Shown: piece by piece, positions 15,875-24,576 of the stretch
Layout of the letters: the number at the start of each line of letters is the position of its first letter
Position numbering within the stretch: the first letter of the stretch is position 1
Virus genome (UHGV): UHGV-0059448
Source of the DNA: a virus
Length of the DNA: 29,315 bases
Strand: one strand, 5' to 3'
Made by a program: the position numbers and the translations under genes
Notes under the pieces: generated by a model
Databases searched by the model: none
What the model saw: only the letters and a program-made list of their open reading frames with translations
What the model was told of the DNA's origin: nothing

Positions 15875-16282
15875 TTAAACAGGCGTATTTAACAAATCGT
15901 CACCCGCTTCGGCAGAAGCGCTACCTGCCGTTATGGTGCCGGGTGCGGTTTCCATCAGACGATCCAGCGCGGTATCCGTACGCGCCTGAGCACTCAGAGG
16001 AGCCGCGGCAAGGATGCGCTGGGCACTTTCCACCGTCATCCCGGGCGTTTCCGCCAGCGCGCGCGCCTGTGATTCACGCCCTTTCGCCTCTTCACAGTTC
16101 AGGATCCCCATAATGCGACCGTTTTCGGCTGCGACCGCCGCTGCCACCTGGCTGCTGATATCAACAGTTGCGCCCGCTGCAGGGTCAGTAACGACCGCAG
16201 CAGGCACGTCAACGGTGGTCACGGTCTGGTCAGCAGATGCTGCTGGTTGAGTGGTATCTGCGGATGCAGTAGTACCTTTCAT
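15875..16282 (-). CDS. Nu3: capsid scaffolding protein Nu3 (nested in-frame in the 3' part of C)
   Basis: Internal ATG at 16282 preceded by GAGGAGGAAGC Shine-Dalgarno inside the C frame; product begins MKGTTASADTT... and ends with the C C-terminus, as for lambda Nu3. Confidence 0.75.
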   Translation of the reverse strand: MKGTTASADTTQPAASADQTVTTVDVPAAVVTDPAAGATVDISSQVAAAVAAENGRIMGILNCEEAKGRESQARALAETPGMTVESAQRILAAAPLSAQARTDTALDRLMETAPGTITAGSASAEAGDDLLNTPV

Positions 16283-17212
16283 GCTTCCTCCTCGGGAAAT
16301 CATCGTTCGTTTGTTAATTGCATCGCGCATAACGTTCAGCGCATCCATGTTGTTGACCAGCTGCTCCGCCAGGCCGTTGTCAACTGATTCCTGGCCTGAA
16401 AAAACAGCTGCTTCAGTATCAAGAACGGCCTGAACCGACATGCCGGTATAACCCGCCACCTTTTCAGCGAACATCTGCCGGGTAGCGTCGATACGCGCCT
16501 GAAAATCTGCGCGTACCTCTTTGGGTAATTTCTCGTAGGGGTTCCCGTCCACCTTGTGATCGCCGCTGTAAATCAGCGTGACCTCAACGCCGCTGGTTTT
16601 AAGGGCGGCGCCGTAATTGCTGTGGGCCATCATGACCCCGATGGATCCCGTTCTGGCCGTCTGGGTCACAAGCCGACGTGATGCCGCACTGGCAATCAGC
16701 TGGCCAGCGCTGCAGTTCATATCGTTGGCTAACGCCCAGATGGGTTTGATATCCCGCATGCGGGCGATGATGTCCGCACAGTCAAAGGCACCCGCCACCA
16801 TTCCACCTGGCGTATCCATATCCAGAAGAATGCCGTCTACACCCGGATCGCTGATTGCCTGCTGGAGGCGGGCGATGATGCCGTTGTACCCCGTCATCCC
16901 CGAATACGGCTGGAGTGAGCGGGTTTTACTGACCAGCGTCCCGGAAACAGGCAGCACCGCGATACCATCAGTAACCTGGTAGCTTCGCGCTGGTTTTGGG
17001 CCCATGTCCTCATCATCACCAAAGAGAGCCAGCGGTTCAGCCATCTGCTCTGCACCTAGCGTCACGCCCGACACGGTGTCGGTCAGACGGGTGATACCTA
17101 ACTGACCAGCGAGAGCACAAAAGAAAACCCGCGCATAGGCGGGTTCAAGTAAAAGCGGCTCATTGAAGGCCATACTGGCAATGTGCGGGAGATTACGCAG
17201 CTCTGGCGTCAT
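15875..17212 (-). CDS. C: prohead protease C (ClpP/S49-like)
   Basis: ATG at 17212 ([19 protein letters not shown]...) with GAGGAGGGG SD, preferred over the upstream ATG at 17227; DMDTPGGMVAGAFD motif; overlaps the 3' end of B. Confidence 0.95.
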   Translation of the reverse strand: MTPELRNLPHIASMAFNEPLLLEPAYARVFFCALAGQLGITRLTDTVSGVTLGAEQMAEPLALFGDDEDMGPKPARSYQVTDGIAVLPVSGTLVSKTRSLQPYSGMTGYNGIIARLQQAISDPGVDGILLDMDTPGGMVAGAFDCADIIARMRDIKPIWALANDMNCSAGQLIASAASRRLVTQTARTGSIGVMMAHSNYGAALKTSGVEVTLIYSGDHKVDGNPYEKLPKEVRADFQARIDATRQMFAEKVAGYTGMSVQAVLDTEAAVFSGQESVDNGLAEQLVNNMDALNVMRDAINKRTMISRGGSMKGTTASADTTQPAASADQTVTTVDVPAAVVTDPAAGATVDISSQVAAAVAAENGRIMGILNCEEAKGRESQARALAETPGMTVESAQRILAAAPLSAQARTDTALDRLMETAPGTITAGSASAEAGDDLLNTPV

Positions 17213-18785
17213 CGGTCCCCTCCTCATTCGATTTTTTCACTCCAGACTCAAAGGCCGAAGCCGCCCACGCTGGCGGTTTAAGTCCCGCTGCGCGACGCTC
17301 CATCGTTTCGCGAACCTGCTGGGCAAAGATTTCCTGATAATCTTCCCCCCGTTTGGCGCATTCCTTCTCATAGGTGCTCAGCCCAGCCTCAATGAGCATG
17401 ACAGCCTCCTGCACCTCCTTCAGACCGTCAATGGCCATTCTCCCGGAGCCGATCCAGTCTGCATTTCCCCAGGCGCTTCTCGCCTCCTGAAAACTGAATC
17501 GGGCTTTAGACGGTAGTGTCACCACCCGGCGAACAATGGCCTCTTCCAGCCAGCATAAAAACATCTGACAGGCCTGGCGGGAGGCAACAAATTTGCGGCG
17601 CCCCATAAAGTACGCCCAGGACTCGTTAGCACTGGCGCGGGCGGTGGAATAACTCATCTGCGAATAGTTGCGAGAGAGTTGCTCATACGACACACCCAGC
17701 CCTGCAGCAATGTAGCGCAGCAGAGATTGTTCAAACGTCGAATAGCCGTTATCAGTATCCTGCGCTGACTGAAGATTCAGGGAGTCGCCCGGCATCAGAT
17801 GCGGCACCTTCGCGCCGCCGAGACGAACCGGCGCAGCGGTATAGTACGAGGCCATCTCCCCCAGCCAGCCGGTCATCTTGCTTTGCTGCTCTTTACTGTC
17901 TGAGCCGAGAATAAAGTCCATCGCGGTTTGCGTATCCAGCTCACTTTCAATCGTGGCGGCATACATCGCCTTGACAATCGCGCTCTGGAGCTGCGTATTC
18001 TGCAGTGTATCGAGCATTTTCATTTGCTCCATGACGCTGTAAAACACGTTAGCACCGCGTGTCTGCCCATCTTCCAGGGGTTCAAATACGTGGATAAAGG
18101 AAGGCCGCCCGCCTGGCAGCTCACGCGGGATGTAGGTCCACTTCTGCGCCATCCACCCCGGATAGCCATCTTCGCTGACGTAATATCCCAGCGCGGCGCC
18201 ACTGTCATTTGTTCTGACCCCCGCCCGACAGTTTCGCGTGTCTCCGGCGTTATTGGGGTTGCTGATGCGTTTCGGGCTCACCATTTTGAACTGTGTGCGG
18301 AAAAGACGCGTGGAATCACTGTCCCAGGTGGCCTGTGCACATAACTCACCGTTAAACGCATGCATGGATACACCTTCACGGATCATCATGGTGAATGTAC
18401 GCTTACGTTCCGCATCAATGCAGCAGCAATCATCCTCCGCAAATTCTTTCCAGGCCGCCTCAACTTCACGGGAGAACGCCCGGGCCTCTTCCTCTCCAAT
18501 GCCAAGAAAACGCCAGCTGGGCCGATAACTGAGCCGGAAAAACGACCCTACAATGTGGTCCTGATGGAGCTGTACCGCGTTTGCCGCATAGCCGTTATTG
18601 CGGACCAGATCGTCAGCGCGCGCGTTACCACGGGAAAAATTAGGCAATAACGCAGCATCTGCGCTTTCACTCGGTGGATTCCAGGCGCGGAGCTGACCGC
18701 CAAAGCCACCAGCACCGCCATGGTATCCGGCATAATCCCGCAGAGCGGTTTTACCGTCCGGTCCTAACAAAGCAGGTGTTTTCAT
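17193..18785 (-). CDS. B: portal protein B
   Basis: 530-aa ORF nearly collinear with lambda B as recalled (YAGYHGG...GFGGQLR.WNPPSES...). Confidence 0.97.
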
Positions 18786-22406: not shown

Positions 22407-22517
22407 GGAATATTTCCTTTTAGGCGTGAGCCTGTCGCACAGCAAAGCCGCCGAAAGTTAACGGTTTGCCCAGGCTCACAACTGAAAGACTTTCTACGGT
22501 GTGCGCGTGCGATGCGC

Positions 22518-22545
22518 ATAAAAAAGCCCCGCATAGGCGAGGCTG
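22518..22545 (-). terminator. rho-independent terminator after the peptidase gene
   Basis: Minus-strand RNA AGCCUCGC-CUAU-GCGGGGCU followed by UUUUUUAU, about 20 nt after the stop of the 22563..23465 gene. Confidence 0.6.
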
Positions 22546-22562
22546 GAATCAGACAGGGGGGA

Positions 22563-23465
22563 TTAAGACTGGATATTCCAAATCATTGCGTTACCGTTAT
22601 GATTTTCAATGATTTTTGCCAGTGGTGCTCCACCAAAAGAATGCATGTAGCTGTGATGTATAGTCAAAACCAAATCTTGAAGTACTTGATCACTTTCAAG
22701 TTCGGTAACATTCAACCCAATTTTCTGCGCCTTATCAAAATGAATATGACGCGAGTGGGTATAGGTTGTGTGATGGTTGTTTAACTCTGAACAAACATGT
22801 GTTGCTTTTGATTCTGCCTCAGGATCATTATCAAACATGCCTGTCATAAGCCAATGCTTAACAATCTCATTTGCCCATTTGATTGCTTTCTCACACTCGC
22901 CGATGATCGTCGGGTTTAGCTTTTGAAGAATGAACTGCCACATCTGAACAGCTGCGGGATTTTGAAAAATTTCCGTCTGCGCACGATTCCATTCTTCAAT
23001 GATGGCATGGGTGGAGAAACCGTTGAACTGAGGATCAATTGGGCCAATGTTGGACTGTTTACCCATGATGATTTCATTGGCACAACATGCAAGCATAGTT
23101 CCGCAGGACATTGAAATCATAGGAACAATTGCTCTGATGTTAGTTCCAAACTTCGACCTTAAGTAATGCCCGATTGATTCCAAAGCGGCAATATCACCAC
23201 CTGGAGTATGAAGTATCAAATCCAACCCTTTTGATACATCTAAACCATTGATGGCTGTCATCAACCCGTTCTTATCATCATCAGTCATCTGAGTAAGATG
23301 GCGTACTTCTGCACCACCATGCTGTAACCACCCTGAGTAATATGTGATTACATTTCTTCCAGTATGATTCGAAAGTTGAGATAAGTATTTACGGCGAACC
23401 TCATCCATAGGACTTTTATGGGCGAGAGCCGTTATCTCGCCCAGTACGTCGCTCCAATTAGGCAT
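22563..23465 (-). CDS. ClpP-fold serine peptidase-like protein (S49 / serine dehydrogenase proteinase-like), accessory
   Basis: 300-aa ORF, ATG at 23465; motifs LILHTPGG and ISMSCGTMLA followed by IGPIDPQ resemble the oxyanion/nucleophile regions of ClpP/S49-family peptidases; lower GC than structural genes; second such protease in the window besides C. Family assignment is from motif recognition only. Confidence 0.65.
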   Translation of the reverse strand: MPNWSDVLGEITALAHKSPMDEVRRKYLSQLSNHTGRNVITYYSGWLQHGGAEVRHLTQMTDDDKNGLMTAINGLDVSKGLDLILHTPGGDIAALESIGHYLRSKFGTNIRAIVPMISMSCGTMLACCANEIIMGKQSNIGPIDPQFNGFSTHAIIEEWNRAQTEIFQNPAAVQMWQFILQKLNPTIIGECEKAIKWANEIVKHWLMTGMFDNDPEAESKATHVCSELNNHHTTYTHSRHIHFDKAQKIGLNVTELESDQVLQDLVLTIHHSYMHSFGGAPLAKIIENHNGNAMIWNIQS

Positions 23466-23468
23466 AAA

Positions 23469-23669
23469 TCAGTACGTGTAAAGTTGATGACTTGTAGTTT
23501 GGTTTTGCTTCGATTGTGTAGCGGTACCTTGTGAGTACCAAACACCTGTGTTTCCACTCGTACTAGTTTGCTGTGCCATTACACGAGAAGCGAAGTTGTT
23601 AACAGTTTCACCAGTCAACATTTCTGCCGGTTTGATATTGTAAACATCGTAGAACTCAGCTGGGGTCAT
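23469..23669 (-). CDS. small hypothetical protein (66 aa), first gene of the peptidase operon
   Basis: ATG at 23669 with AAGGAG SD 8 nt upstream; stop TGA 3 nt before the peptidase ATG (possible translational coupling); C-terminal half Gln/Thr/Ser-rich. Confidence 0.65.
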   Translation of the reverse strand: MTPAEFYDVYNIKPAEMLTGETVNNFASRVMAQQTSTSGNTGVWYSQGTATQSKQNQTTSHQLYTY

Positions 23670-23754
23670 AATGATAGCTCCTTTTATAGCGCTACATATA
23701 GTGCCTGTGCCAAGGGGGACATACTATATGTGCCATTGTTGTCATATTTAAATG

Positions 23755-23780
23755 TGCAAAAAGCCTCAAAAGAGGCTTGA
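23755..23780 (-). terminator. terminator-like hairpin downstream of the lysis cassette
   Basis: Minus-strand RNA AAGCCUC-UUUU-GAGGCUU followed by UUUGCACAUUU; lies 260 nt after the Rz stop and upstream of the small-protein/peptidase operon. Confidence 0.5.
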
Positions 23781-24039
23781 AAAAGATGCAAAAATACTAT
23801 CTATGACGTGACTATAGCTACTTACCCACAGTTTATACAAGCCAAAAATGCTAAATTCAGATAATCCTATTCGCTGAAAAACTACACAAAAGCTACGTTC
23901 ATCTTGTCATTAGATAACGTCAGTAACTTTCACTGGATCTAAGCCATTGGTGAAAAAGCTAATTGCATGATGAAGCACTGTAATGTAGCAGTTGAGGTTG
24001 TTAAATGAGAATCACCCTAACAATGTCAACGGACATTAT

Positions 24040-24576
24040 TCATTTTCGTAACTTCTCAATCTCTCGTATACCCGCCAGGTTATTGTTGCCCTTCTCAATA
24101 ACAGCCAGCAAAGGTTCAATCCAGAGGACGGCCTGGCAATACGTCATTGAGCTGGCGGCAGCGGTACTATCATCGGTTGCGTTAGTGTTCCCGGTATCGG
24201 GGTGCATTGCGCTGGCACGTAAACGGTACGCGTATTTGAGCAGCCCACCAGCGACATCAGCAGGAACAGGCAGATCACAGGTCTTTTCACGTCGGAGAAT
24301 CTCCCGGTATTCGATGACAGTTTTCTCAGTACCGGCATCGATCAGCGAGTTAAGGCGGTTGGCGTTCTCTGCTATCTGGTTAAACCGATTGAAGTTGAAA
24401 GCCTGTGTAGTTATCACCGTCGCCTGCAGCGCGTTATCATTACGTAATACCCGATTCTCACTCTGTTCTGTTTCAAGAGCTGAGCGGCTACGAACCAGTA
24501 ATACGCTAAGCACTGCAATAATGATTACGACAGCCACCAGCAGAACCGCAACAATCGTAATTTTTCTGGGTTTCAT
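24040..24576 (-). CDS. Rz: spanin, inner membrane subunit (Rz-like)
   Basis: 178-aa ORF with N-terminal transmembrane helix (ITIVAVLLVAVVIIIAVLSVLLV) and a charged helical periplasmic part; start overlaps the endolysin stop; contains an embedded lipoprotein ORF in another frame. Confidence 0.8.
   Translation of the reverse strand: MKPRKITIVAVLLVAVVIIIAVLSVLLVRSRSALETEQSENRVLRNDNALQATVITTQAFNFNRFNQIAENANRLNSLIDAGTEKTVIEYREILRREKTCDLPVPADVAGGLLKYAYRLRASAMHPDTGNTNATDDSTAAASSMTYCQAVLWIEPLLAVIEKGNNNLAGIREIEKLRK
24144..24290 (-). CDS. Rz1: spanin, outer membrane lipoprotein subunit (Rz1-like), embedded in Rz
   Basis: Frame embedded within Rz; probable GTG start at 24290 (GGGAG about 10 nt upstream) giving MKRPVICLFLLMSLVGC with lipobox LVGC; Pro-rich mature part (...PIPGTLTQPMIVPLPPAQ). 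The ORF track lists an ATG at 24338 as an alternative start. Confidence 0.7.
   Translation of the reverse strand: MKRPVICLFLLMSLVGCSNTRTVYVPAQCTPIPGTLTQPMIVPLPPAQ

Follow-up and report, generated by a model that had tools for sequence, protein, structure and literature searches.

The window analysed here is the whole of a 29,315-nucleotide stretch of DNA, virus genome UHGV-0059448, which by gene content is a lambda-like prophage; our subject is a two-gene cassette on its minus strand, lying in the slot between Rz and Nu1 (Rz-to-cos), which encodes a ClpP-fold serine protease and a small partner protein. The cassette had been singled out from the letters alone in an earlier reading (the original prediction), which described a 66-aa protein and, 3 nt further on, a 300-aa peptidase, and the open reading frame (ORF) list confirmed both coordinates and spacing: the two ORFs are separated by TGA-TTT and lie in one frame (Table 1). 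Upstream of the cassette are a holin gene, a lysozyme gene and an Rz-like gene with a lipoprotein ORF embedded in it, and downstream are Nu1, A, W, the portal gene and an S49 head protease gene.

The cassette is AT-richer than its neighbours, as had been noticed; GC content is 0.37-0.44 over positions 22600-24100 and 0.50-0.54 in the flanks (the terminase side and the lysozyme/spanin side), a drop of about 10 points below the surroundings. The original prediction also had the pair bracketed by hairpin terminators. The downstream one, a strong stem 3' of the protease gene (22544..22525) with a T-run after it, was recovered by a terminator scan, and the upstream hairpin proved real but lies inside the leader of the cassette. 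The mobile unit extends from ~22508, the point at which similarity to its counterpart in another phage background ceases, to ~23850, where conservation with cassettes from a second prophage slot starts. Its upstream end had been placed at 23780; the unit reaches further because the upstream hairpin and the dyad next to it belong to a conserved leader, ~190 nt long, which moves along with the genes. Judged by its deviant GC content, closing terminator, conserved promoter-like element and occurrence in varied phage backgrounds and slots, the cassette is a moron, an autonomous accessory unit moved between prophage slots, in keeping with the self-contained accessory operon first proposed.

A ClpP-fold protease and its small partner

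The 300-aa protein matched the Pfam family PF01972 (SDH_protease) with 81.2 bits against a gathering cut-off of 31.3, over its residues 22-255 and positions 35-246 of the 286 in the profile; this family, earlier named DUF114 or SDH_sah, holds ClpP-like SDH-type serine proteinases. The two motifs that had suggested a peptidase, LILHTPGG (residues 83-90) and ISMSCGTMLA (residues 117-126), contain residues that are invariant in 26 homologues (H86, T87, P88, G89, G90, M119, S120, G122, T123 and M124), and D144 is invariant in these sequences along with S120 and H86. When a profile of the 26 homologues was compared with solved structures, only ClpP (E 3e-4, 87 residues) and the archaeal NfeD protease were recovered; HTPGG and MS(A/C)GT aligned with TPGG and AASMGT of ClpP, such that Ser120 of MSCGT fell on the catalytic serine of ClpP and NfeD protease, and HTPGG on the oxyanion loop. 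Ser120 is the candidate nucleophile and HTPGG the candidate oxyanion motif. An AlphaFold2 model of the protein had a predicted local distance difference test score of 88.5, with a helical C-terminal half, and Foldseek returned SppA and ClpP as the nearest solved folds (probability 1.0, E ~1e-3, template modelling score 0.5-0.66, normalised to the target); neither the profile search nor Foldseek found a close solved structure. Profile match and modelled fold together identify the 300-aa product as a serine protease with the ClpP fold, of the SDH/PF01972 type, which bears out the ClpP/S49-like assignment of the original prediction at the level of fold.

Assignment to narrower families fell short of their thresholds. 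The protein scored 95.9 bits against the NCBIfam equivalog model NF047768 (Clp_like_SDH), whose cut-off is 250, although RefSeq uses that name for the gene; a score so far under the cut-off argues for a distinct subfamily, whose ~300-aa proteins are helical in their C-terminal half and have a small obligatory partner. Likeness to SppA/S49 is confined to the fold (TIGR00706, 16 bits versus 155; no match to PF01343), no match to the ClpP (S14) family PF00574 was found, NfeD1b_N scored 25 bits, below its cut-off of 40, and the prohead protease models phrog_53 and NF045542 gave 23 bits and 21 bits (cut-off of the latter, 120), respectively. Within PHROG the protease belongs to family 11747, of unknown function. 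No model of PADLOC-DB v2 matched the protease or the small protein, and the literature searched contained nothing on this protease family; two mentions of a 'Clp-like protease' concerned unrelated proteins. In some genomes PGAP called the start of the protease at an internal methionine, giving a product of 281 aa.

A database search returned more than 8000 homologues, and the window protease shares 50-57% identity with proteins from Pseudomonas, Methylomonas, Clostridia, Nitrospirae, Acidobacteria, Planctomycetes, Actinobacteria and archaea of the Methanosarcinales, a level of identity over so broad a range of taxa that it points to horizontal spread of the family. Five homologues (P0068, P0096, P0065, P0092 and P0117) carry low-complexity C-terminal extensions of 20-50 residues rich in Gln and Pro. 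The closest viral structural relatives in BFVD were giant-virus proteins named 'serine dehydrogenase proteinase' (Marseillevirus, Mimivirus-like and Klosneuvirus; E 1e-10 to 1e-7), which were nearer to the model of the window protease than was any phage ClpP-like protease.

The 66-aa ORF displays the substitution pattern of a real gene under purifying selection, the pairwise ratio of non-synonymous to synonymous substitution (dN/dS) against its relatives being 0.04-0.15. The protein matched PHROG 25714 (E 4e-44), a family of unknown function, and library searches detected no Pfam or NCBIfam domain in it. Close relatives numbered only 10 in a word-indexed search; diverged small ORFs were nevertheless seen in the same place beside protease homologues that are 63-84% identical. 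Comparison by hhalign linked the enterobacterial subtype of the window to a broad family of partners, type A (probability 90.9%, E 1e-6, 51 columns), and the types A and C share the pattern F..(F/L)N(I/L)....P.Y.NP..FA..FKKC(S/T)(I/L).....V.YS(S/T)..., whereas a further type, B, could not be aligned with type A. A V-x-Y-S motif is conserved in the partner family. When 1.84 billion representative proteins were searched exhaustively with a profile, 245 partner clusters were recovered, essentially all of 52-90 aa, the few longer ones looking like mis-called starts; none of the 245 was named, none had a Pfam domain and none was a true fusion. Identity between partners is only 20-30% within a type, whereas that between proteases is at least 50% across phyla and archaea. 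In one type-A partner of 169 aa (P0183), the segment SILEYKQI(Y/S)YSSS, in the region of the YS motif, is duplicated internally.

Annotation of the small gene is uneven. In the RefSeq records of two E. coli genomes (L001 and L002), whose cassette is identical to that of the window, PGAP skips the 66-aa gene, and in a 76-82% identical variant and in strain Nissle 1917 the gene is annotated as 'hypothetical protein'; since it is missed in identical cassettes, surveys based on annotation would see just an orphan 'S49/SDH peptidase'. An unannotated ORF of 58 aa, ending ...HVRYSTSATR, overlaps the start of the SDH-protease gene 31 in Gordonia phage BeeGee, and by its sequence appears to be the partner missing from the deposited genome.

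That RefSeq omits the small ORF from identical cassettes, and that both ORFs share a frame across TGA-TTT, would suit an explanation in which the small ORF has no function as a protein, being a leader or upstream ORF that couples translation, or in which one protein is made by read-through of the TGA. The dN/dS values, the conservation of the partner family at profile level across phyla, the position of the partner 3' of the protease in Clostridia and the lack of natural fusions among the matches, where longer homologues have mis-called starts or Q/P-rich C-terminal tails instead, all argue otherwise; a read-through fusion was rejected because gap and frame vary between loci, and on this sequence evidence the explanation is effectively refuted.

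Modelled alone with AlphaFold2, the partner had helices at residues 3-9 and 23-37, of low confidence, and residues 38-66 were of low confidence throughout. The N-terminal half is thus predicted to be helical, and the C-terminal half, which is rich in Ser, Thr and Gln, to be disordered. The latter half contains a GVWYS motif and ends in QLY(T/S)Y, which is invariant in enterobacteria but not conserved outside them. The partner has neither a signal peptide nor a transmembrane segment, the protease sequence likewise lacks a signal peptide and any membrane segment, and both proteins look cytoplasmic. A disordered Ser/Thr-rich half with a conserved YS and, in enterobacteria, an invariant end could also belong to a precursor that the protease cuts into a peptide, such as an arbitrium-type signal or a product resembling ribosomally synthesised and post-translationally modified peptides, and the cleavage of stomatin by NfeD protease offers a precedent. 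We consider such a precursor very unlikely: the partner has no segment for export or membrane insertion, the neighbourhood lacks a conserved transporter, receptor or modification enzyme, and the C-terminus of the partner is not kept outside enterobacteria.

Conservation of the pair

Pairing was surveyed in 83 loci, of which 80 came from species genomes, one was that of the window and two were additional. An ORF of ~55-90 aa on the same strand abuts the protease gene in nearly all of them, with gaps of -8 to +58 nt; stop and start codons often overlap or sit within a few nucleotides of each other, many loci having an overlap of 1 or 8 nt and one (L100) a gap of 5 nt. A profile-supported partner was present at 71 of the 83 loci (types A/C, 41; type B, 26; enterobacterial subtype, 3; L083, 1), so that the pair is conserved in far more genomes than the original prediction could have known. 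About ten further loci have a similarly placed small ORF when judged by eye, bringing the total to ~81, and one locus has none.

Three observations argue against coincidental adjacency. When 18,347 six-frame ORF segments from all loci were searched, every type-A match below E 0.01 adjoined the protease gene on the same strand. Seven loci of Clostridia/Lachnospiraceae that had not been used to train the profiles (L030, L035, L064, L077, L079, L081 and L083) have the partner, of type A, in inverted order, directly 3' of the protease, and at these the pair follows a prophage endolysin gene. Lastly, the partner types form clean, separate blocks on a dendrogram of the proteases, and segregate perfectly with protease clades. 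The pair stands by itself: 149 Pfam families were represented among 144 immediate neighbours without a third conserved gene, and no Clp ATPase is conserved among the neighbours of the protease at the loci surveyed. Together these genome comparisons show that the protease and its partner of ~60 aa form a conserved, co-evolving pair across many bacterial phyla and the Methanosarcinales.

A structured leader upstream of the enterobacterial pair

The region upstream of the genes was aligned among 11 diverged enterobacterial cassettes taken from different phage slots, and its elements were found to be conserved in order: a promoter-like element, a terminator hairpin, the dyad hairpin and a Shine-Dalgarno sequence. 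The promoter-like element is kept in these cassettes as TTGTAT, TTGTCA or TTGATA followed by (GC)TATAGT or TATATT; in the window it reads TTGTAT-18-TATAGT, which a consensus scan had left out because of its weak -35 hexamer. The terminator-like hairpin, which narrowly failed the T-run rule of the terminator scan, has a helix of 7 bp in which 96% of the alignment cells from the 11 sequences are paired and 4 of 7 pairs change on both sides.

The dyad lies where the original prediction had placed it. It is probably not a promoter or operator element, and instead has the marks of a hairpin in transcribed RNA: 89% of its cells are paired, and three pairs change on both sides. Its first arm is taken to be transcribed because mismatches are mainly of the G.U kind on the sense strand. 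For the two helices together, 91.9% of cells are paired as compared to 24-55% in slid controls, seven pairs change on both sides, and the covariation score was reached by none of 500 shuffles; RNAalifold independently predicted both helices. A promoter proposed by the scan, TTTAAA-18-TATAGT, overlaps arm 1 and was rejected as the main promoter, since arm 1 covaries with arm 2; it is unlikely to be real given that it overlaps a transcribed arm, and the alignment shows no conserved -10-like hexamer in the stretch from one hairpin to the other. Rfam searches with the cassette and leader gave only chance matches below threshold. The leader terminator was also considered, and rejected, as a feature of the whole family, an upstream terminator being present at 3 of 29 loci outside the enterobacterial clade.

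From its sequence, the order of promoter, terminator, hairpin and genes looks like an attenuator, or like a unit for a short RNA with occasional read-through into the genes. An attenuator-like order inside an operon that is antiterminated by Q predicts stronger expression during lytic growth. In a fold of this region as a single sequence, the 5' end of the putative leader, UCAUAGAUAGU, pairs with the Shine-Dalgarno/start region (GCUAUC..AUUAUGA), and such long-range pairing may mask the start of translation; CATAG of this 5' end is conserved in several relatives, the z-score of the fold is only -1.9 and the conservation is partial.

Sequences around the cassette were noted as well. About 130 bp 3' of the protease gene, which include the terminator, are a widespread lambdoid sequence, 92-98% identical in mEp237, mEp213, mEp043, HK639, phi80 and other phages without the cassette, and possibly form the joint at which the slot recombines. 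Directly downstream lies a separate moron encoding a protein of 255 aa, which carries the RefSeq name 'Fur-regulated protein', matches PHROG 17079 (function unknown) and has no match in PADLOC-DB v2; it was placed outside the unit because it is absent from other phages carrying the identical protease cassette. On the other side, the product of 178 aa named 'hypothetical protein' that follows lysozyme is a spanin resembling Rz, in whose gene an Rz1-like ORF of 64 aa with the lipobox LVGC is embedded, and it is here that the lysis cassette truly ends.

Table 1. Features of the cassette, its surroundings and loci compared with it. Coordinates are those of the window unless a locus is named.
Feature	Coordinates	Strand	Evidence or remark
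Putative promoter: TTGTAT (23840..23835), 18-nt spacer, TATAGT (23816..23811)	23811..23840	-	alignment
Terminator-like hairpin, AAGCCTC-TTTT-GAGGCTT plus T-run	23758..23778	-	alignment, RNAalifold
Leader hairpin 2 (dyad): arms ACATATAGT (23731..23723) and ACTATATGT (23702..23694), 20-nt loop	23694..23731	-	covariation
Segment folded as a single sequence	23655..23806	-	possible pairing of leader 5' end with start region
Shine-Dalgarno sequence AGGAG, 8 nt before the ATG of the small ORF	23678..23682	-	sequence; GGAG conserved in alignment
Small partner gene	23469..23669	-	ORF list; 66 aa
Protease gene	22563..23465	-	ORF list; 300 aa
Intrinsic terminator ending the cassette: AGCCTCGC-CTAT-GCGGGGCT plus TTTTTTAT	22517..22544	-	terminator scan
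Widespread lambdoid sequence, possible recombination joint	22411..22545		
Separate moron, 255 aa	21678..22445	-	
Rz-like spanin gene, 178 aa	24040..24576	-	
Rz1-like ORF, 64 aa	24144..24338	-	
Head protease C	15875..17227		annotated as S49 family peptidase; next to portal
Acb2/Tad1 hairpin-domain genes (anti-CBASS/anti-Thoeris sponges)	L093 5322..5558; L100 1993..2274; L101 1882..2274; L113 12136..12420		next to or near the cassette
Apparent partner ORF of Gordonia phage BeeGee, 58 aa	L109 3325..3501		

Genomic context and possible function

Enterobacterial cassettes were always found in an accessory slot of a lambdoid late operon, either from Rz to cos/terminase, as in the window and several unrelated phage backbones, or between Q and holin; every sampled context of an enterobacterial homologue was a lambdoid prophage, and a setting in phage-inducible chromosomal islands (PICIs) was rejected for them. 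Elsewhere the settings differ: the cassette lies between the attachment end and int in Pseudomonas, after endolysin in Clostridia, and beside HicAB in Porphyromonas prophages; in a Mu-like Shewanella phage it has the late regulator gene C (Mup21) on one side and the lysis genes on the other. The commonest immediate neighbour was a phage-type integrase (9-11 of 144), followed by DNA methyltransferases, AbiEii-like AAA_21 proteins, endolysins and Q antiterminators. A homologue was present in 7 of 50,697 phage records, six of them Mu-like or prophage-derived and the seventh that of BeeGee; the seven carriers include no known virulent phage, though the lifestyle of BeeGee was not checked. Full-length copies were found four times in 72,556 plasmid records. 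Among complete E. coli genomes the homologous pair has a patchy distribution, being present in 80 of 5426, among them the probiotic and easily handled strain Nissle 1917. Overall, temperate phages and other integrative elements carry the pair as cargo.

We favour a reading of the cassette as a mobile two-gene moron that acts as a conflict module, limiting competing phages through defence or exclusion encoded by the prophage, and give it a probability of roughly 0.5. Genomic context supports a role in defence only indirectly, through the adjacency of integrases and the presence of HicAB, methyltransferases and Acb2/Tad1 genes among the neighbours. The original prediction had proposed a defence, abortive-infection or toxin-antitoxin-like module. 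Its observations were confirmed and this interpretation was partly supported, a defence or toxin-antitoxin role being plausible; as to co-occurrence, which it had raised for other genomes and defence islands, the pair is indeed widespread.

Several points weigh against a defence role. Defence genes are only modestly frequent among immediate neighbours, and the slots used in enterobacteria often hold counter-defence genes, both orphan N6/N4 methyltransferases and Acb2/Tad1 sponges. Given a late-operon site that follows a leader terminator, expression during the lytic cycle is at least as good a fit as expression in a lysogen. Furthermore, the presumed physical interaction of partner and protease comes from genomics only.

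The main rival draws on this same evidence, and holds that the pair serves counter-defence or host takeover during lytic growth, the small protein guiding or timing a protease that degrades immune or regulatory proteins of the host, with expression coming mainly from Q-antiterminated late transcription. All enterobacterial copies sit within the late operon, where they share slots with sponge genes and orphan methyltransferases, and the terminator that separates the promoter-like element from the genes would restrict expression unless transcription were antiterminated. Counter-defence genes, however, are usually common in virulent phages, and the carriers counted above are few and without a known virulent member; outside enterobacteria the cassette lies beside integrases at the edges of elements, archaeal and other genomes lack a late-operon context, the leader terminator is not general, and a PICI system of like architecture, described below, reportedly blocks phages. 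On balance we regard counter-defence as unlikely.

An addiction role would be compatible with defence. The pair is a tightly coupled two-gene operon of a small partner and a larger effector that are inherited together, which is the arrangement of type II toxin-antitoxin modules; with the protease as toxin and the small protein as labile antitoxin, such a module would mainly stabilise the mobile element, and any effect on phages would be secondary. Translational coupling, a small upstream partner that is half disordered, promiscuous transfer without a conserved third gene, HicAB next to the cassette in one phage, and the inverted order in one clade, which is also seen among toxin-antitoxin families, are all in line with this. 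Pfam and NCBIfam searches, however, recognised neither a DNA-binding domain nor a known antitoxin domain in the small protein, and plasmids, on which addiction modules are enriched, are rare carriers of the cassette. We judge an addiction module to be rather unlikely as the primary role.

Relationships to described systems were considered from both the pair and the fold. A two-gene antiphage system borne on PICIs was reportedly among those presented by Fillol-Salom and colleagues in Cell in 2022, with its mechanism said to be unknown. DefenseFinder lists this system as FS_HP_SDH_sah, a hypothetical protein followed by a PF01972 ('SDH_sah') protein among the cargo of enterobacterial PICIs. As in the window, a hypothetical protein gene there adjoins a PF01972 gene; the listed system belongs to PICIs, whereas the window copy occupies a late-operon slot of a lambdoid prophage. 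The name FS_HP_SDH_sah did not occur in the literature searched, which included the main text of the DefenseFinder paper. By this analogy, the window pair is probably of the same kind as the PICI system of 'HP + SDH_sah', to which it may be homologous, and the statement of the original prediction that the pair could not be matched to a described system is probably wrong. We know of no description of FS_HP_SDH_sah that covers a spread across phyla, partner types or a structured leader.

Operons of NfeD protease (1510-N) with stomatin and of SppA with YteJ provide precedents for a ClpP-fold protease that acts on, or is controlled by, its operon partner. Like the window protease, these are ClpP-fold serine proteases, ATP-independent, with an operon partner as substrate or regulator, and both NfeD protease and SppA are among the solved structures nearest to it; they differ in being membrane-bound, with Ser-Lys dyads and membrane partners, whereas the window proteins look cytoplasmic. 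Lit and IetAS, defences of the abortive-infection and toxin-antitoxin kinds that rely on a protease, resemble the pair in combining a protease on a mobile element with one partner, and a logic of silence until infection may be shared. Their folds are unrelated to that of the window protease, Lit being a zinc metalloprotease and IetS a subtilisin-like protease with an ATPase partner, and a search of PADLOC-DB v2 detected no homology to either. The lambda head protease C (S49) and ClpP-like prohead proteases share the superfamily fold; head protease C sits in the head module, and the cassette protease is a separate gene outside that module, as had been claimed, the window having a C gene of its own.

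How the favoured conflict module might work can be sketched as follows. The helical N-terminal half of the partner would dock on the protease, placing its C-terminal segment, with the V-x-Y-S and Ser/Thr motif, in or near the catalytic groove, where, as a pseudo-substrate or a labile substrate, it would silence the enzyme. Infection would remove or remodel the partner, either through binding of a phage protein or through loss of its resupply, and the freed protease would then cut a conserved cellular or phage protein, such that phage production stops. In the enterobacterial copies the structured leader would add a gate on expression, and the Q-antiterminated position in the late operon a further layer of control. 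The combination of a conserved protease with a fast-evolving partner fits a variable sensor joined to an effector whose target is conserved. This specific form of the proposal, in which an infection sensor or pseudo-substrate of ~60 aa gates an ATP-independent ClpP-fold protease, and the whole constitutes a pan-prokaryotic immune module with a new effector and sensing logic, is tentative, and we hold it to be possible rather than probable.

What is new here are the partner and its types, their co-segregation with the protease clade, the spread of the pair, archaea included, the conserved leader and the gap in annotation. A universal partner in at least two types that cannot be aligned with each other, the co-segregation with clades, the reversed order in one clade and the V-x-Y-S motif are handles by which the proposal can be tested. 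If the window pair is truly homologous to FS_HP_SDH_sah, a defence role would be of a kind for which experimental support is already reported. Should the pair serve in defence, it would make a very compact system built around a protease, with neither an ATPase nor a nuclease nor nucleotide signalling, and one which has spread horizontally through most prokaryotic phyla.

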